Source: Ktedonobacterales bacterium
GTDB taxonomy: Bacteria > Chloroflexota > Ktedonobacteria > Ktedonobacterales > JADMIN01
Direction of reading: 5' to 3'
Length of the DNA stretch: 32,000 nt
NCBI GenBank assembly: GCA_030167145.1
Contig: CP126532.1
Coordinates: 1,260,001-1,292,000 of the forward strand
The notes beneath the pieces were generated by a model. It saw only the letters and a program-made list of their open reading frames with translations, was not told where the DNA came from and did no database searches. Both the position numbers and the translations under genes were made by a program. Shown piece after piece: positions 18,164 through 28,973 of this stretch (the stretch's first letter is position 1; each line of letters starts with the position of its first letter).

Positions 18164-19792
18164 ATGGCTGGCAATGGCAGGGTCTTCATCAGTCATTCAC
18201 ACGACGACAACGCGCGCTGTGCGCCGCTGCTGGCGGCGATGGAAGCCTGGGGCGTAGACTATTTCTTCGATACGCAGGGGTTGGGCGCCGGGCAGCAACT
18301 CAACGAGACGATACAGCGCGAGATTGCCACTCGCGATGTCTTCTTGCGCGTCTGCACCGCCGCCACACAGCGATCGTTCTGGATGAGCCTGGAAGTCAGC
18401 GCCTTTCGTGGCTTGCAGGCGGAGGACCAGCGCCGGGGACGGGGTAGCCAGCGGCTGCTGATCAATCTGATTCTCGACGGCGACTATACCCGCGAGCCGT
18501 TTGACAACGCAACGCTCTTCATTGACGCCGCCAGCAGGCCGCGCCCGGTGTGGATGGCAGAATTGGGGCGGGCATTGAATGTTTCGGCTCCCAGGGCGCA
18601 ACGTCCGAAGGTTAGCCGTCGCGAGGTGGTGGCATACGGGGCGGCTGCCGCCGTCACCCTCAGTTCCACCGCAGCGGCAGGGGCGCTCTTTCTCGACTAT
18701 CGCAGTCATACGCAAGGTCCGGTGGCGCAATTGCCGAAGTACTTGCCCGGCAAGCCGGTCTGGACGATCCCCAACGCCAGCCCGAAGAAGGATATACCAA
18801 CGTTGCCCGTGGTCGGTGGTAATACGCTCTACCTGTTGAGCGTGGCGGATGTGACCGCCTACGATATTGGGCATGTCACCAATGGCACGCCCAAGAAGCT
18901 CTGGAGCCAGACCATCACGCCGAAGCAAACCATCGTCTCGCCGGCGGTGTATGGAAGTGTGCTGTATCTGGGTATAGATTCGACGCTGTACGCGCTCAAT
19001 GCCCACAATGGCACGAAGATTTGGACCGTTGACCTGCCTGCAGATGATAACGGGATAGATTCGGGAGCGCTGTTAGTGAACGGCGTGATCTACATCTTCT
19101 CTCAGACGGGCCGCCTCTATACCTTCAGGGCTAAAGATGGCTCGCAGGTGTGGAATGATGTTGTGGATGCGACGGCATACTTACTCGACCACGCTTCTGG
19201 CCCGGCGGTGGATGGGGACAGTGTGTTCATCGGCTCACTGGATCATAACATCTATGCGCTGAATGCCAAAGACGGCTCGCAACGCTGGAAGGTGTTGACG
19301 CGCGGCCCCGTCATCTCGACACCAGCGGTGGTCAACGGCACTGTCTATATTGGCTCTGGTGACAATTACGTCTATGCCCTGAACACCAAAGACGGCTCGG
19401 TCAGGTGGAAGTATTTGACGGGTGAAGCGGTGAATTCAAGCCCAGCCGTGGTGGACGGTGTCGTCTACGTTGCCTCTGACGACCACTATCTCTACACGCT
19501 CGATGCCGAGACTGGCAAGCCGTACTGGCGCGCGCCTATCGGTGACCTCGATGCCTCAACGGGCATCATCGAAAAGGGCGGCCCTGTCACCTGCCAACCG
19601 GCTATCGCGGGCGATGCCGTTTGCGTGATGGACGATCTAAATTTCGTCGTTCGCAGCTACAGCCGCTCCGACGGCGAGTCGCGATGGACTTATGCATCCA
19701 AGAGCGGCTATGAGAACGCGGATCCGTTAGCCGCCAACGGACTTATTCTCTTCGGCTCCGGCGACCAAACCCTCTACGCTTTTGGCGCATAA
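18164..19792 (+). CDS. TIR domain - single TM - PQQ-like beta-propeller protein, paralogue 1
   Basis: The N-terminus GRVFISHSHDD...WGVDYFFDT...GAGQQL...DVFLRVCT...SFWMSLE matches the bacterial TIR (TIR_2-like) pattern. SRR plus the hydrophobic VVAYGAAAAVTLSSTAAAGALFL occupies residues ~151-177. Repeated blades follow, such as NIYALNAKDGSQRWK, YVYALNTKDGSVRWKY and YLYTLDAETGKPYWR. AGAGGAAGGGG lies upstream of the ATG. Confidence 0.8.
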   Translation: MAGNGRVFISHSHDDNARCAPLLAAMEAWGVDYFFDTQGLGAGQQLNETIQREIATRDVFLRVCTAATQRSFWMSLEVSAFRGLQAEDQRRGRGSQRLLINLILDGDYTREPFDNATLFIDAASRPRPVWMAELGRALNVSAPRAQRPKVSRREVVAYGAAAAVTLSSTAAAGALFLDYRSHTQGPVAQLPKYLPGKPVWTIPNASPKKDIPTLPVVGGNTLYLLSVADVTAYDIGHVTNGTPKKLWSQTITPKQTIVSPAVYGSVLYLGIDSTLYALNAHNGTKIWTVDLPADDNGIDSGALLVNGVIYIFSQTGRLYTFRAKDGSQVWNDVVDATAYLLDHASGPAVDGDSVFIGSLDHNIYALNAKDGSQRWKVLTRGPVISTPAVVNGTVYIGSGDNYVYALNTKDGSVRWKYLTGEAVNSSPAVVDGVVYVASDDHYLYTLDAETGKPYWRAPIGDLDASTGIIEKGGPVTCQPAIAGDAVCVMDDLNFVVRSYSRSDGESRWTYASKSGYENADPLAANGLILFGSGDQTLYAFGA

Positions 19793-19892
19793 GCGCGCCG
19801 AGTCTGGCATGGAAACGACACGCAACTACAGGCTGGCAGGCCGTTCGCGTGGTTGCGAGTGGGCAAGAATACTCTGAAGGGGAGGAATGTGC

Positions 19893-21509
19893 ATGCCTGG
19901 GAACGGCAAGGTGTTCATCAGCCACACACACGAAGATAATGAGCGCTGCGCGCCGCTGCTGGCGGCGCTAGATGCCTGGGGTGTGGAGTACTGGTTTGAT
20001 ACGCAGCAACTCGATGCTGGGCAGCATCTCTCGGACCGCCTGCAACAGGCATTGGCGGAGCATGATGTGCTGCTGCGCATCTGCACGCCCGCCGCGCAAT
20101 CGTCGTACTGGATGATGATGGAGATGAACGCTTTTCGCGGCCTCCAGCTCGAAGATCAGCAGCGCAAGCGCCACAATGCGCGTCTCAGCATCAACCTGAT
20201 TCTGGCCCCAGGTTACGTCGCCAGTGCGGCTGACCGCGCCGACATCGTCATAGACGCGATGAATCAGCCTCGCCAACACACCTTCGCGGAGTTGCGCACG
20301 GCGCTGGGTCTCTCTGCCGCGGCGCGTCCGAAGCGTGGAGTCAGCCGACGTGCGGTGCTGGGCTTGGGTGCGGCTGGTATCATCACGGCGGGCGCGCTGG
20401 CAAGCGGCGGTGTGCTGCTCAAAGATCGCAACGAACAACCGGTTCACAAGCCATATCCCAAGCCGAAGACCATCCCGTTCGACAACCCGCAAACGATGGA
20501 CCCGCGCATCAAGTGGTATTTCAAGGCTGGCGATGATCTGGGCATGGGCCTGGCGCTGGCAAATGGTGCACTTGTTCTCAACACACAAGATGGCTTGTAT
20601 GCGCTCAAGTCTGAGGATGGCTCGATTCTCTGGACGAAACTGCAGATACGGGGCGATGCCAGCAGCATGCCGTGGGTCGCGGGCAATGTGCTCTATGTTG
20701 CCGCCAGTGAGGGGTTCACCGGCGGCACATTGTACGCACTGAAGGCGAGCGACGGATCACAGATTTGGACAGCCCAGATAGCCTCATCCTTCGAGGATTT
20801 GCAAATAGCAGTCGCCACTGACCGCATCTTTATGGTCACCGACGATGGGTCCATCATTGCCTATAGCACCGCCGATGGCTCCAAGCAGTGGCGCAGCGCG
20901 ACCGCGATGGCCAAGGGCGCGCGTGGAGCGCCCGCATCGGACGGCAACGCGGTGTATATCGGCTCGCCAGATGGCAACCTCTATGCACTGAGCGCCGCCG
21001 ATGGCTCACTGCTCTGGCAGCATCAGACCGGTGGTGAGATTGCTGACACGCCAGCCATAGCCGGTGGTGCGGTCTACTTCGGCTCGAAAGATCAGCATAT
21101 GTACGCGCTGAACGCCACCGATGGTTCGCTCAAATGGCGCTATGCGGCGGGAAACGAGGTCAACATAGCCCCAACCGTCGCCAAAGGCGTCGCCTATATT
21201 GGTCTGCTCAATAACCTGAATGCATTCGACGCGAATACTGGCAAGCTCCTCTGGCAGGCGCCCGCAGGTGACCCGAATGGTTTCGAGTTTATTGATAGCG
21301 TGGCGGCGACAGTGCTGGGCGATGCGATCTACGCCGTGTCGGATAACTATCTATATGCCTTCAGCGCAGAGCAGAAGAAGAGCGTCTGGCGCTTCAAGTT
21401 GAATAGCATTCTTTCGCTCGACGCGACGATGGTTGCCACCAGCGATACCCTGTACTTCGGCGGCGCCGATCACGCGCTCTACGCGCTGAATACCACGCTG
21501 CCGCAATAG
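19893..21509 (+). CDS. TIR domain - single TM - PQQ-like beta-propeller protein, paralogue 2
   Basis: GKVFISHTHED...WGVEYWFDT...DVLLRICT...SYWMMME, then SRRAVLGLGAAGIITAGALASGGVLL, then blades (LYALKASDGSQIW, LYALSAADGSLLW, MYALNATDGSLKW). GGAGG (19881-19885) lies 7 nt before the ATG at 19893, which is preferred to 19887. Confidence 0.8.
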   Translation: MPGNGKVFISHTHEDNERCAPLLAALDAWGVEYWFDTQQLDAGQHLSDRLQQALAEHDVLLRICTPAAQSSYWMMMEMNAFRGLQLEDQQRKRHNARLSINLILAPGYVASAADRADIVIDAMNQPRQHTFAELRTALGLSAAARPKRGVSRRAVLGLGAAGIITAGALASGGVLLKDRNEQPVHKPYPKPKTIPFDNPQTMDPRIKWYFKAGDDLGMGLALANGALVLNTQDGLYALKSEDGSILWTKLQIRGDASSMPWVAGNVLYVAASEGFTGGTLYALKASDGSQIWTAQIASSFEDLQIAVATDRIFMVTDDGSIIAYSTADGSKQWRSATAMAKGARGAPASDGNAVYIGSPDGNLYALSAADGSLLWQHQTGGEIADTPAIAGGAVYFGSKDQHMYALNATDGSLKWRYAAGNEVNIAPTVAKGVAYIGLLNNLNAFDANTGKLLWQAPAGDPNGFEFIDSVAATVLGDAIYAVSDNYLYAFSAEQKKSVWRFKLNSILSLDATMVATSDTLYFGGADHALYALNTTLPQ

Positions 21510-21598
21510 AGATGTGGGCAGGCCAGCAGGGTGGATGTTGGTTGAGCGACGGCGCGAGCTTTACTTGTGGCTCATAAGCGATGAATGGGGAGAGTGCC

Positions 21599-23257
21599 AT
21601 GTCTGGCAAGGTCTTTATCAGCCATGCCCGCGAGGATTTCGCGCGCTGTGCGCGTCTGCTGAAGGCGCTGGATACCTGGGGCGTGGATTACTGGTATGAG
21701 ACGATGGAGCATGCGGCGGGCCAGCGGCTCACTGAGCAGGCGCAGATGGCGCTCTCGGAATGTGATGTGTTCCTGCGGATCTGCACGCGCGACACGAAGC
21801 GTTCCTATTGGATGGGTATCGAGGCGGGCAGCTTCCTGAGCTTGCAGGCCGAAGACCATCGCAAAGGGCAGGTAGACCGGCGCAAACTCGTCAATCTCGT
21901 GCTCGACCCCGCCTATGTGCGTGAGCCATTCGACGCCAGCGCCACGGTGATTGACGCGACCAATACGGGATGGGCGGGCTGGGTCAACGAACTGCGCCGC
22001 GCGCTGAGCCTGCCGCCGCTGGTGGATATCGTCGCCGTGGCCCAGGAGATTAATCCGCCGCAGCCGGAGGGCATCAGCCGGCGCAAGGCGATTGGGCTGG
22101 CTGCGGCGGGTGCCGTCGTGCTGGCTGCGGCGGGCGCGGGTGGGCTCGCGCTGCTGAAGCATGGCGGCACTACCACAGCGATTCATACGCCCACAGCCAC
22201 GCCGACACCGCCAAGTAGCGACCCGCATCTGCGCTGGTGGTATCAGACGCCTTCACACGCCAGTGTCACGAAGTTCGCCAATGCCATTGATTCCTCCCTG
22301 GCGGTGGCCAATGGCGTGATCTATACCGCAACGGAGGATGGTGGGGTCTACGCTCTGAGCGCCATTGGACTGCAACTGCTCTGGAGCAAGCCACTCGGCA
22401 TTTCGGTCTCGGCTACGCCGCTGGCGGTCTATAACAATCTTGTTTACGTCCGGGTCAATGGCGGAGATTATACACTCTATGCGCTGGATGCCCAGCACGA
22501 AGGCAATGAGGTCTGGCATCTTAATTACACTGCGACGGGGCCAGCGATTGTAGACGGCGTGCTCTATGCCGGAGGTAATGGCCTAGCTGGTGCGGTCATC
22601 AATGGCTTCGATCCTATGACGGGAAAGTCGCTCTGGGGTGGCGCTACCAATGGCTATCCATCGGGTACACCCGCCGTGGCTAATGGCATTGTCTATATCG
22701 GCACGGACAAAGGGTATGTCCACGCGTTCAGCATAACCACGCCACATAGCGAGATATGGAGCGCGAAAGCGGGTGCGGACGCGATTGCGCAGGGGAAAGA
22801 TGGCGCTATCGTCAACTTGCCAGCAATCGCGAACGGTATTGTGTACATTGGCTCAGAAGATCACAACCTCTATGCGTTGGATGCGCTCACTGGCGCGCAA
22901 CGCTGGAAATATCCTACGGGCGACGAGATATTCTATTCCTCACCGGCTGTGGCCAACGGCATGGTGTATGTCGGCTCCGAAGATCACATGATCTATGCGC
23001 TGGACGCGAAGACGGGGACGAAGGTTTGGAGCTATGAGACGAAGGGAAAGGTTGCCTCGTCACCCGCAGTCGTCGGCGCTATGCTCTATATTGGCTCTAG
23101 CGATAGGTCTGTCTATGTGCTGGATGCCAAAACTGGGTCGCTGCTCCACAAATATGCCGTGAGTGGGTCGGTGGTGGTGCAACCGATGGTGGTCAATGGC
23201 ATTCTGTATGCGGGCGACGCCAACGGCATTGTGTATGCCTTCGATGCGGCGCAATAG
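21599..23257 (+). CDS. TIR domain - single TM - PQQ-like beta-propeller protein, paralogue 3
   Basis: GKVFISHAREDF...WGVDYWYET...DVFLRICT...SYWMGIE, then SRRKAIGLAAAGAVVLAAAGAGGLALL, then blades (LYALDALTGAQRWKY, IYALDAKTGTKVWSY, VYVLDAKTGSLL). The ATG at 21599 follows GGGGAGAG. Confidence 0.8.
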   Translation: MSGKVFISHAREDFARCARLLKALDTWGVDYWYETMEHAAGQRLTEQAQMALSECDVFLRICTRDTKRSYWMGIEAGSFLSLQAEDHRKGQVDRRKLVNLVLDPAYVREPFDASATVIDATNTGWAGWVNELRRALSLPPLVDIVAVAQEINPPQPEGISRRKAIGLAAAGAVVLAAAGAGGLALLKHGGTTTAIHTPTATPTPPSSDPHLRWWYQTPSHASVTKFANAIDSSLAVANGVIYTATEDGGVYALSAIGLQLLWSKPLGISVSATPLAVYNNLVYVRVNGGDYTLYALDAQHEGNEVWHLNYTATGPAIVDGVLYAGGNGLAGAVINGFDPMTGKSLWGGATNGYPSGTPAVANGIVYIGTDKGYVHAFSITTPHSEIWSAKAGADAIAQGKDGAIVNLPAIANGIVYIGSEDHNLYALDALTGAQRWKYPTGDEIFYSSPAVANGMVYVGSEDHMIYALDAKTGTKVWSYETKGKVASSPAVVGAMLYIGSSDRSVYVLDAKTGSLLHKYAVSGSVVVQPMVVNGILYAGDANGIVYAFDAAQ

Positions 23258-24288: not shown

Positions 24289-26790
<2,502 letters not shown>

Positions 26791-27190
26791 GCGATTGCGA
26801 TCCTCCCGTAGGGCAAAACGATAAGGTTAGATGAGCGTTTTGCTGGAAATGTATTTTGCTGCGGTGTGCGACGAGCGCCTATGTCCGCCAATTGAAAACG
26901 GCGCGGCACCACGTTGACCACGGCTCAGGTGATTCAAGATAGGCATTCCGCGCAAACGTGCCGAAAGCGGCAATTGATGCGGCAATCCATGCCGTGTGGC
27001 GCGAAAAGCCATACATTAGTATACCACCGAAAAAGCCGCAGCCCGCTGTTTTGGTGGGGAACCGGCCATGACGGGCTATGGGGCACGGTCGCCGCTTCGG
27101 CCATGAATGGCCAGGGCGCAAGCGACGAGGCATGAATGCCCAGATGCATACTCCTGGGCCAGTGGCCGATGTGGCCTATGTGCGTGCGCT

Positions 27191-27215
27191 GGCAGACAAG
27201 AATGTCTGCCCTACC
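27191..27215 (+). repeat. Hairpin element family 2 (GGCAGACA-AGAA-TGTCTGCC-CTACC)
   Basis: Perfect 8-bp stem. The flanking CTACC(A)GTGGCCG is shared with the 24190 copy. Confidence 0.55.
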
Positions 27216-27322
27216 AGTGGCCGGGATGGCCGTAGATGAGAGTTGCCGATTCTGCCGATTTGCACAGTTGCCGAAATGACCGTGATGGTGAGGGAGATGA
27301 CCGGAATTGGCGCGAATTGTCT

Positions 27323-27348
27323 GGAGATTTTTCGCCGTTTTCGCCGCA
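27323..27348 (+). repeat. 26-nt perfect repeat GGAGATTTTTCGCCGTTTTCGCCGCA, copy 1
   Basis: Identical to 27556-27581, 233 nt away. Both are followed by ...TGCATATG[GC]G and then a 20-nt motif copy, which indicates a degenerate ~235-250 bp tandem duplication. Confidence 0.8.
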
Positions 27349-27555
27349 ATTGCATATGGCGCGCATGGATGGCAGTTGCCGATTCTGCCGATTTTTCGAT
27401 GTGCGCGGAGGGCGAGGTGGGGAATAGAGGAAGCTCTCGGCCTGAAGGCAGTGGGTAATTTCGTGCGAGCGGAGCGACTGAAGTACTGAGTTGCCGATTC
27501 TGCCGTTTTGCGCGGTAGCGTGGGGGTGAACGACGAGAGATGACAGGTGATGACG

Positions 27556-27581
27556 GGAGATTTTTCGCCGTTTTCGCCGCA
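27556..27581 (+). repeat. 26-nt perfect repeat GGAGATTTTTCGCCGTTTTCGCCGCA, copy 2
   Basis: See copy 1. Confidence 0.8.
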
Positions 27582-27824
27582 GATGTGTTTGCATATGCGA
27601 TGTCCTTCCTTGTGTCAGTGGCCGAAGTAGCCGATTTTTACCTGCTGGCAGTTGCCGATTCTGCCGATTTTTTGATTTTGCACAGAGGGCAAGTTGGGTG
27701 GTGGAGCGAGGACGTAGCATGAATGCCACGGGTAATCCCGGCTGGATGGGAGCGTGGAGTTGCCGCAGTTGAGTCATAGGACAGTTGCCGATTCTGCCGA
27801 TTTTTCGACAATGGTAGAATGGTA

Positions 27825-27844
27825 GACAGGAATGCCTGTCCCAC
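27825..27844 (+). repeat. Hairpin element family 2, degenerate copy (GACAGG-AATG-CCTGTC-CCAC)
   Basis: A 6-bp stem, followed by TGATGGCCGAAATGG, which resembles the flank of the 27191 copy. Confidence 0.4.
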
Positions 27845-28188
27845 TGATGGCCGAAATGGTCGTTTTTTTGGTTGTGAAGGTACAGGTGATGCGGGCGGGG
27901 CGCGAGGCTATGGCGGGCATCGTGGGGGTAGCGTAGCATGGGGGCGCAGGGGCGGCGAGTGGACAGGGGCGGGCGAGCGGGGACATTCATGGACAAGCGT
28001 GGACACGCGTTGATGGGGTCTGGCGGGTATCATCGTCACGAAGGCCTCTACCTGAGGCTACGGTTGTGGCTGGGAGGCATATGGTGGCCGAGGAGATATG
28101 TAGCGCGGCGTTTCGAAGGCATCCGGCGCGCGACTACCTGCGTGGTACATCCGCGTGTTCGTTATCGCTGGCGATGGGAATGAAGGGG

Positions 28189-28221
28189 CGCTGGGAACAG
28201 GGGTGGTAGCTGCTCCCAGCG
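28189..28221 (-). terminator. Stem-loop downstream of the 28260-28973 gene (terminator-like)
   Basis: CGCTGGGAACAG - GGGTGGTAG - CTGCTCCCAGCG pairs at 11 of 12 positions. It lies ~40 nt past the stop. There is no U-tract. Confidence 0.35.
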
Positions 28222-28259
28222 TCCGAGCGCTGAGCGGTGATGGTTGCGAGCGTGATGGG

Positions 28260-28973
28260 TTAGGGCTGGGCAGTTAGTCCGGACATGCCGCCATCCACGA
28301 GGGGATAGTGGCCGCTGTTGACGGCTTTGGTGAGCATGTCGAGGACGGCCTTCGATTGATCCTGGGTGAGGATGCCGCCGCTGGCGGCCTGATTGAGATA
28401 GGTCTGTGCCGCGCCGAGGTAGGCTGCGCTGACGTCAGAGAGCTTGACGTGCTGAGCCTGTGCAATCTGGGCGACCGTCTGATTGTGGCCGAGGTCAGAT
28501 TCGAGTGCGGCGGGGGTGATATGCAGCGCACCGGCGACGGCGTTGACCAGGGCAGTGCGCGCGCCCATGACCTGTTGCAGCACCATCGGATTGCTTTGCA
28601 GCGAGCTGGCGATGGTCTTACTGTTCAGGTTGAGGCAGGGCTGGTTGCCAACCTGCTTCAGCATTTGTTTGAGTTGGTCGCGCTCGACGGCGGTGATCTT
28701 GCCGTCGGCGGCCATCTGATCGAGCACCTTGCCGCTGGCGTCTATGTTGGCCTGTTCGAGCGCGGAGGGGCTGATGTGCAGGTCATTGGCGAGGGTTTGC
28801 TCGTAGATCTGGCAATACTTGCCGGATTGCGAGCCGTCGCTGGCGACGGTGTAGTGGGGCGCGGCCTGGGCTTGCGCGGGGAGCCGTGTGCCCAGCAGAA
28901 AACCGCCAGCAAGCCCGACTAGCAGCAGGCCGCCTGCGGCAAGTGCGATGATGATGCGTTTTCGCGTGTCCAT
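28260..28973 (-). CDS. Hypothetical N-terminally membrane-anchored protein with two internal repeats
   Basis: N-terminal anchor MDTRKRIIIALAAGGLLLVGLAGGFLLG. A repeated module, LHISPSALEQ...ITAVERDQLKQMLKQV / LHITPAALES...LTQDQSKAVLDMLTKAV. No family recognised. Confidence 0.6.
   Translation of the reverse strand: MDTRKRIIIALAAGGLLLVGLAGGFLLGTRLPAQAQAAPHYTVASDGSQSGKYCQIYEQTLANDLHISPSALEQANIDASGKVLDQMAADGKITAVERDQLKQMLKQVGNQPCLNLNSKTIASSLQSNPMVLQQVMGARTALVNAVAGALHITPAALESDLGHNQTVAQIAQAQHVKLSDVSAAYLGAAQTYLNQAASGGILTQDQSKAVLDMLTKAVNSGHYPLVDGGMSGLTAQP

Follow-up and report, generated by a model that had tools for sequence, protein, structure and literature searches.

Mycobacterial interspersed repetitive units (MIRUs) are short direct repeats in intergenic arrays of variable number, which follow the orientation of the transcription unit and allow translation; the tandem units, 40-100 bp long, belong to a single family and overlap with the stop and start codons of the genes on either side. 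Repetitive extragenic palindromic (REP) sequences alternate in orientation within bacterial interspersed mosaic elements (BIMEs) and within the REP doublets forming hairpins known as REPINs (PMC2817692, PMC3333891). Rickettsia palindromic elements (RPEs) are repeat families that have been inserted in frame in unrelated housekeeping genes and are translated (PMC10969869), and for elements that Y1 transposases move as single-stranded DNA, activity on the lagging-strand template is documented (PMC3333891, PMC6006769). This study concerns a 1469-nt gap (positions 26791-28259) upstream of gyrA in a 32,000-nt stretch, hereafter the window (G000:C1:1260001-1292000), of a soil Chloroflexota genome, G000 (contig CP126532.1, a Ktedonobacterales bacterium). 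The middle 770 bases of this gap are one of ∼54 arrays of an undescribed one-directional repeat family.

The family was recognized by a 21-nt anchor, AGTTGCCGATTCTGCCGATTT, matches to which were counted at three mismatches or fewer, with the reversed anchor as control. The genome contains 107 perfect copies and 188 within the mismatch limit, compared with 0 for the control, far more than chance would give; these group into 54-56 arrays occupying ∼25 kb in total. The repeats, which the initial annotation had left as either dispersed or locus-specific, are thus dispersed; of the origins that it proposed for the gap, a nest of decayed miniature mobile elements comes closest, with modules spread over ∼54 arrays, although with 107 perfect anchors the elements are not decayed. 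The arrays draw on at least seven modules, comprising two hairpin types and 9/10-nt doublets. Module a gave 182 genomic matches versus 18 for its control, module B is present in 71 copies (68 within arrays), module F in 27, and module C in 222, 154 of which lie outside arrays, while modules D and E are two variants of one hairpin element with ∼70 copies. Anchors punctuate the arrays at irregular spacings of 33 to 368 nt, with recurrent cassettes between them, namely F-B (∼95 nt), D/E (∼90 nt) and module C; 56 of 127 anchor spacings are multiples of 3, which is above expectation (p=0.014). Every one of the ∼54 arrays has a distinct module order and unique flanks, and across 56 arrays 528 of 530 module matches are co-oriented within their array. 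Inverted C pairs occur only in separate C-only clusters.

Both hairpin types have a defined structure. In 66 aligned copies of D/E there is a 7-bp stem with an invariant TGAA loop in which 82.9% of cells are paired, and double (compensatory) changes are found at five of the seven pairs, a result matched by none of 500 column shuffles and far above slid controls. The D/E stem is clearly maintained, although the paralogous nature of the copies means that independent compensatory events are few. RNAalifold predicted only 3 pairs from the same 66 copies, and a second hairpin in the alignment, GGG-TAAT-CCC, is weaker, with 78.8% pairing and few double changes. The family form of module C is GGCAGACA-GGAA-TGTCTGCC plus CCCACC/CCTACC, that is, an 8-bp stem with GTAG/GTGG on the complementary strand.

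The direction of the arrays follows that of the neighbouring genes. Genes outside the window were called with our own simple codon-usage picker of open reading frames (ORFs), and only solid ORFs entered the comparison of directions. In 48 of 54 arrays the nearest such gene 5′ of the motif, gyrA included, is directed away from it; the array therefore lies upstream of such a gene, and the C/A-rich strand of the array is its sense strand. Ten other such genes, identified with NCBIfam, are pepN, leuS, uvrA, a carboxyltransferase gene, hisS, pdxS, the gene for alpha-glucan phosphorylase, ksgA, tilS and pckG, which have varied housekeeping functions and share no pathway. The sense strand of the arrays is C-rich and G-poor, and it is also depleted of stop codons in all frames: 42 arrays (22.5 kb) contain 79 stops, compared with 300 +/- 13 in dinucleotide-preserving shuffles, and at least two stop-free frames are present in 33 of the 42. 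The same depletion is seen between the recognized modules, where 283 distinct linkers carry 59 sense-strand stops versus 174 expected, compared with 422 versus 435 expected on the motif strand of the same linkers. The motif strand of the arrays, read in the opposite orientation, has ∼25 stops per kb, and ordinary upstream regions have stops at 0.91 of expectation. When all 64 trinucleotides on the linker sense strand were measured relative to their dinucleotide expectation, the most depleted were TAA (0.15), TGA (0.44) and TAG (0.54); open frames on the sense strand thus exceed a purely compositional effect. On the minus strand of the window block 5 stops are found versus 12.9 expected, which is how the 261-aa ORF of the initial annotation arises.

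Repeats of the family also lie within three genes, with the motif always antisense to the gene. In leuS (G000:C1:454513-457476) a five-anchor array at 455494-455706, with spacings of 42, 57, 51 and 42 nt, is in frame and encodes KSAESAT five times within an 87-aa insert rich in Ala, Ser and Thr. The insert aligns between residues 235 and 239 of Thermus thermophilus LeuRS, which is the junction that precedes the editing domain. It is missing from most relatives; one relative (G009) and, in part, two more (G001 and G010) carry an insertion there. In uvrA (G000:C1:491178-494297) coding signal is found on both sides of a degenerate anchor-type copy encoding ENGKNGN, and an unnamed ORF (939349-941256) likewise has coding signal on both sides of an internal anchor-type repeat.

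These relationships with genes bear on one alternative, in which the arrays would be functional cis elements that enter the transcript of the downstream gene, on the C/A-rich strand, as a long leader or as a spacer within an operon. They would be kept stop-free in all frames to let ribosomes run through them, and could shield an RNA that is C-rich and prone to Rho or provide a leader or linker that is translated. The orientation of 48 of 54 arrays toward the downstream gene, the confinement of stop depletion to that strand, its C-rich and G-poor composition, the excess of anchor spacings that are multiples of 3 and the translation of the leuS array as KSAESAT repeats all agree with such a role. 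At gyrA, however, a promoter-like element and a ribosome-binding site separate the array from the gene, and an in-frame stop precedes the gyrA ATG, so that here the array is neither a leader nor an N-terminal extension. The window block moreover keeps its 5 sense-strand stops, the neighbouring genes have no common pathway and the arrays are species-specific. On this evidence we regard a cis-acting function as unlikely.

The arrays are also polar with respect to GC skew. Published Ktedonobacteria chromosomes are reported to have a V-shaped cumulative skew (PMC13289182); that of G000 is patchy, with ∼31 minima and ∼31 maxima in the cumulative curve. The patches amount to ∼60 domains of tens to hundreds of kb, with skews of up to +/-0.24 per 50 kb. 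Measured in the orientation of the motif, skew 5-20 kb 3′ of the array is positive at 48 of 54 arrays (p=3e-9), and at the same distance 5′ it is positive at just 25 of 54. The 3′-minus-5′ difference is 0.093, compared with 0.002 +/- 0.013 for random intergenic gaps each oriented by its own local skew, and none of 2000 such samples reached it. Mean skew is +0.15 beside the array and falls 3′ of it to +0.02 by 50-100 kb, while 5′ of the array it is ∼0 beyond 5 kb. Within 10 kb of an array lie 16 of the 31 minus-to-plus (origin-like) switches in skew versus 1 of the 31 plus-to-minus switches, and of the eight most prominent minus-to-plus switches seven are less than ∼6 kb from an array. About half of the arrays are not near any switch; the window array is one of these, lying inside a positive domain with skews of +0.12 and +0.18 on its two sides. 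Stand-alone copies of the hairpins C (154 copies) and D/E (32 copies) are ∼75-84% co-oriented with skew, symmetrically on the two sides.

Coding strand was ruled out as the cause of the skew, for gene strand and skew are uncorrelated (r=-0.09) and the Pfam-verified genes of both strands in the window lie in positive skew. Since the two are independent and the arrays obey both, the arrays prefer genes on the C-rich strand; that of gyrA is an example, with + strand skew over the gene of +0.2 to +0.39. Homologous inversion between arrays was likewise rejected as the source of the switches, by reasoning, because inversions would put arrays at both kinds of switch and only one kind is enriched.

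A second alternative is that the arrays are polar elements of chromosome architecture, multi-site platforms for a factor that binds DNA or single-stranded DNA, and mark the points where strand-asymmetric domains start, or bring these starts about. They could serve in replication restart or initiation, in R-loop formation or in the loading of a one-directional machine. The strict strand lock, the decay of skew on the 3′ side only, the concentration of arrays at minima rather than maxima, the lack of relation between skew and gene strand and the location of both rRNA operons on the G-rich strand of their domains are all in keeping with it. No cognate protein is known, however, and no half-site recurs among the different doublet modules; skew minima show no enrichment of DnaA boxes (0.9 per 10 kb versus 1.17 genome-wide), around half of the arrays are away from switches, and genomes of the same genus lack the family, which one would not expect of a core architectural function. 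It may also be that the skew domains are simply old inversions. We therefore consider an architectural role quite unlikely. A more specific form of the idea, in which the arrays are polar landmarks just inside the origin-like ends of ∼30 GC-skew domains and a one-directional, strand-asymmetric process begins at them (for instance the initiation or restart of replication, or exposure of one strand over long distances), is highly doubtful; if it were true, a process acting over tens of kilobases would write the patchy skew, and gyrA would be an adjacent head-on gene. As a separate observation, the genome has two strong DnaA-family genes (G000:C1:664029-664505 and 2908586-2909056, E ∼1e-70 each) and three weak ones, and its densest clusters of DnaA boxes (7 boxes per kb) are at ∼2,585,308 and ∼3,086,597, the first of them 2 kb from an array.

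The distribution of the family among relatives is narrow. Among named relatives, the nearest to G000 are uncultured Chloroflexia or Ktedonobacterales MAGs. Two genomes of the same genus, which are fragmented and 84-88% complete, contain zero copies of the anchor, B or D. Anchor-like copies number 9-17 in three genomes from two other genera of the taxonomic family, and a search of genome contigs for the exact anchor found only two other genomes, with one copy apiece. C-like and D-like hairpins are spread somewhat wider, the module C family being present in a genome of another genus (G012). Upstream of gyrA the array is absent in every relative examined: a same-genus genome (G001) has ∼230 nt there with no repeats, G011 and G007 have short gaps, and the ∼1 kb present in G004 is repeat-free. 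The array is thus a recent, lineage-specific arrival rather than a conserved gyrA leader, and the comparison of gyrA upstream regions suggested in the initial annotation gave no conservation.

That the block might be an assembly artefact or a collapsed repeat was also considered. G000 is a single 5.07-Mb contig (GC 62.6%) of an uncultured organism with 91.9% completeness, assemblers fail at repeats, and the patchy GC skew could stem from false inversions. The ∼54 arrays, however, each have their own module order and unique flanks, the leuS array preserves the frame of an essential gene, related motifs are present in independently assembled genomes, and false inversions would place arrays at both kinds of skew switch instead of one. 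An artefact is accordingly an extremely improbable explanation.

With moderate confidence, we regard the array as a member of a selfish repeat family, similar to BIMEs, MIRUs and RPEs, that is strand-locked and tolerant of translation; most likely it does nothing specific for gyrA. For the mode of spread we infer a strand-specific, replication-coupled process that would use single-stranded DNA, as for IS200/IS605 and REP elements, after which arrays would grow locally by slippage of 9-nt units and exchange between arrays. Copies would persist only where their C/A-rich, stop-free strand is the sense strand of the neighbouring gene, and the other orientation, which carries terminator-like sites composed of a hairpin plus a T-run and many stop codons, would be selected against. 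Such a double filter would leave arrays upstream of, or in frame inside, genes on the C-rich (lagging-type) strand such as gyrA. The link to skew, also seen in the stand-alone hairpins, fits spread via single-stranded DNA at replication forks, and selection against the other orientation would agree with both the rule on gene direction and the avoidance of stops. Recent spread is supported by the 107 perfect anchors together with the two same-genus genomes that lack anchor, B and D. G000 also encodes three PF01797 (Y1) genes, two of them intact, IS200/IS605-like and each with a neighbouring large ORF.

Several points weigh against this reading. All three Y1 genes lack modules within 3 kb and no transposase is linked to the family, and the third Y1 gene has lost the HUH histidines, with DRVY instead. 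The anchor and doublet modules are non-palindromic, whereas REP and IS200 ends are palindromic. Selfish spread alone leaves unexplained why arrays lie near the starts of G-rich skew domains, and the 5′/3′ skew asymmetry is ∼6.8 standard deviations above the matched null. Translation of the arrays could account equally well for the avoidance of stops in intergenic copies. Lastly, gene calls beyond the window rest on our own crude ORF model, and the copies are paralogues, so that copy-based statistics overstate the number of independent events. The third Y1-like gene (G000:C1:3971938-3972390, 150 aa) stands alone upstream of a gene starting MPKCERCKQND, a zinc-finger start like that of clpC/mcsA, and from its sequence looks like a domesticated or dead transposase.

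The window array itself (27100..27870) reads a-C-A-B-A-E-A-F-B-a-A-D-A-C, with all modules on the + strand. All four repeat families of the initial annotation (a 20/21-nt motif in five copies, a 26-nt pair, hairpins and CAGTGGCCGnnnTGGCC motifs) are present at the places where it put them. Genome-wide copy coverage peaks at 115 per 20-nt bin, and the nearest paralogous array, at G000 1480163-1480407, is 85% identical across 229 nt. The anchor, module A, is itself a 9-nt doublet and occurs at 27241..27261, 27374-27394, 27489-27509, 27650-27670 and 27783-27803; four copies are perfect and that at 27489-27509 has one mismatch. A sigma-54 reading of the anchor was ruled out by its spacing, GG-N8-GC instead of GG-N10-GC. 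The 26-nt perfect pair, GGAGATTTTTCGCCGTTTTCGCCGCA, is at 27323 and 27556. Module B is a doublet of TTTTCGCCG (27326..27348 and 27559-27581), the second copy of which follows module F, a 10-nt doublet of the GATGACGGGA type (27539-27559). Module a, a doublet of GTGGCCGAT, lies at 27161..27177 and 27617-27633, with degenerate copies at 27214 and 27846; the CAGTGGCCGnnnTGGCC motifs are at 27161, 27214, 27617 and 27846. Module C (27191..27214 and 27821-27844) is the REP-like hairpin GGCAGACA-AGAA-TGTCTGCC followed by CTACC, a tag that is GTAG on the opposite strand. Module D (27711..27740) and its variant E (27429-27449) consist of the 7-bp hairpin with its TGAA loop and then GGGTAATCCC. T-runs follow the hairpins on the + strand.

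The gap that contains the array is a genuine non-coding gap between gyrA and the next solid ORF. The gyrA gene (24289..26790, minus strand, 833 aa, taken from the ORF list) sits 5′ of the array and is directed away from it, and its product shares 66-85% identity with the GyrA of 20 relatives. A 237-aa gene (28260..28973, minus strand), co-directional with gyrA, lies 3′ of the array; a Pfam search of its product gave no family, and its homologues in relatives have 44-56% identity on contigs not linked to gyrA. None of the eight ORFs in the gap, including that of 261 aa (27211-27996, minus strand), has a Pfam match at E<=0.1, no covariance model of Rfam 15 matches within 26791-28259 at E<=1, and ARAGORN found no tRNA or tmRNA in the gap, which bears out the initial view that the block has no credible ORF. 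Its description as A/T-richer holds, modestly, with a GC content of 0.52-0.60 versus 0.626 genome-wide. The repeat density described for the whole block applies to part of it: BLAST of the gap against the whole genome restricted repeated sequence to ∼27100-27870, and the flanks 26791-27100 and 27871-28259 are unique in the genome and unmatched among 30 relatives. The gap most likely consists of ∼310 nt of unique gyrA promoter and 5′ untranslated region (5′ UTR), the 770-nt array and a unique G-rich trailer of ∼390 nt.

The gyrA-proximal segment (26791..27100, minus strand), without a copy elsewhere in the genome, was read directly. It contains a ribosome-binding site, GGGAGGA (26801-26807, minus strand), 10 nt before the gyrA ATG, and an extended -10-like sequence, TGGTATACT (27018-27026, minus strand), ∼230 nt upstream of gyrA, which on sequence grounds is a plausible promoter. 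The segment is thus probably the gyrA promoter with a 5′ UTR of ∼215 nt, which would place the array upstream of the probable promoter and outside the mRNA. A consensus scan for sigma-70 promoters and terminators returned 0 promoters, with no full sigma-70 match, and three terminator-like sites, a number not above that in shuffles. Folding of the whole block was not significant on either strand (z of -1.75 and -1.41 versus shuffles).

These features bear on a third alternative, put forward in the initial annotation, namely that the block is a leader or promoter region of gyrA, long and structured, or else holds clustered genes for small RNAs. Its position directly upstream of gyrA, the conserved hairpins and the + strand T-runs that follow them are compatible with such a role. 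The same modules, however, lie at ∼54 unrelated loci, beside pepN, hisS, pdxS, ksgA and others, the block is absent upstream of gyrA in all relatives examined, there is no Rfam family, and the folding energy is like that of shuffles; a plausible promoter and ribosome-binding site are instead found in the unique 310 nt. A gyrA-specific leader or small RNA cluster is therefore largely refuted and very improbable.

On the other side of the array, the trailer of the 237-aa gene (27871..28259, + strand) is G-rich, with a skew of +0.36 and 17 G-runs versus 1 C-run. Read-through RNA from the 237-aa gene would consequently be C-rich and G-poor, which would be the composition expected for a Rho-loading site. 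An inverted repeat at 28186-28224 (15 nt, 87% complementary, 9-nt loop), 35-70 nt beyond the stop of the 237-aa gene, has no U-run on the sense strand and may be the 3′-end hairpin of that gene.

Two further observations concern the surroundings of the gap. Positions 18164-23257 of the window (+ strand) carry three tandem paralogues of ∼540-560 aa, each with an N-terminal TIR domain and a PQQ-type beta-propeller, an architecture that recalls defence or NAD-consuming sensors. In nine relatives (G006, G012, G013, G014, G015, G025, G028, G032 and G033) the match to GyrA begins at about residue 101-120 and the gyrA open frame is 1000-1400 aa, which suggests an intein-sized insertion near the GyrA active-site region that the gyrA of G000 lacks.

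If this description holds, three rules apply together in this family, and we have not seen them described jointly: the modules of an array face the same way, their direction tracks both local GC skew and the neighbouring gene, and stop codons are avoided in all frames on one strand, so that a single array can act as spacer DNA or, as in leuS, as a protein linker. The family offers a system for asking how short repeats spread without a recognizable transposase, in what way selection on transcription and on translation moulds 'junk' repeats, and whether the scrambled skew of some Chloroflexota is the joint product of repeats and rearrangements. For annotation, such gaps should not be labelled gyrA leaders, small RNA clusters, iterons or 261-aa proteins.

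Among described systems, iteron fields of plasmid and chromosomal origins share with the arrays co-oriented direct repeats of ∼21 bp at irregular spacing in a non-coding block of lower GC. Unlike iterons, the arrays occupy 54 loci beside housekeeping genes with no adjacent rep gene and no enrichment of DnaA boxes, and no initiator gene was found in the window. CRISPR arrays differ in that anchor spacing here varies from 33 to 368 nt and the 'spacers' are themselves repeated modules. Non-autonomous elements derived from IS200/IS605, the palindrome-associated transposable elements (PATEs), show a similar strand polarity with respect to replication and have subterminal hairpins, and G000 has Y1 transposases; for the arrays, however, neither element ends nor a target tetranucleotide nor a linked transposase could be identified, and they are composite rather than discrete insertions. 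With BIMEs and REP clusters (REP, REPIN and REP-associated tyrosine transposase (RAYT) systems of enterobacteria and pseudomonads) the family shares a high copy number, a largely intergenic location and a mosaic build of short modules, stem-loops among them, and both are lineage-specific. The REP unit is a 20-40 nt imperfect palindrome with a 5′ GTAG-type tag, which module C fits, having an 8-bp REP-like hairpin flanked on one side by a GTAG/GTGG tag, and D/E is a covarying 7-bp hairpin. Modules A, a, B and F, which make up most of the array, are instead 9/10-nt direct doublets and not palindromes. The 528 of 530 co-oriented matches in 56 arrays differ from the orientation seen in BIMEs and REPINs, and no repeat-flanked RAYT was found, none of the three PF01797 genes having a module within 3 kb. 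To our knowledge, the links to skew and gene direction and the avoidance of stops in all frames are not features of BIMEs. The MIRU-like properties are the orientation rule, obeyed by 48 of 54 arrays, and a 3-fold depletion of sense-strand stops, whereas at least seven module families, irregularly spaced, make up the mosaic of the arrays, and the array at gyrA overlaps no stop or start codon, sitting 310 nt from the gyrA ATG and 390 nt from the upstream stop codon. As with RPEs, in-frame copies are found, in leuS, uvrA and ORF 939349-941256; RPEs, however, are palindromic units of ∼150 bp that each encode a conserved peptide, and the in-frame pieces described here are arrays of 21-nt anchors at 42-57-nt spacing in a family whose copies are mostly intergenic. 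The family thus resembles BIMEs, MIRUs and RPEs, yet departs from each of them in some of the features by which that class is defined.

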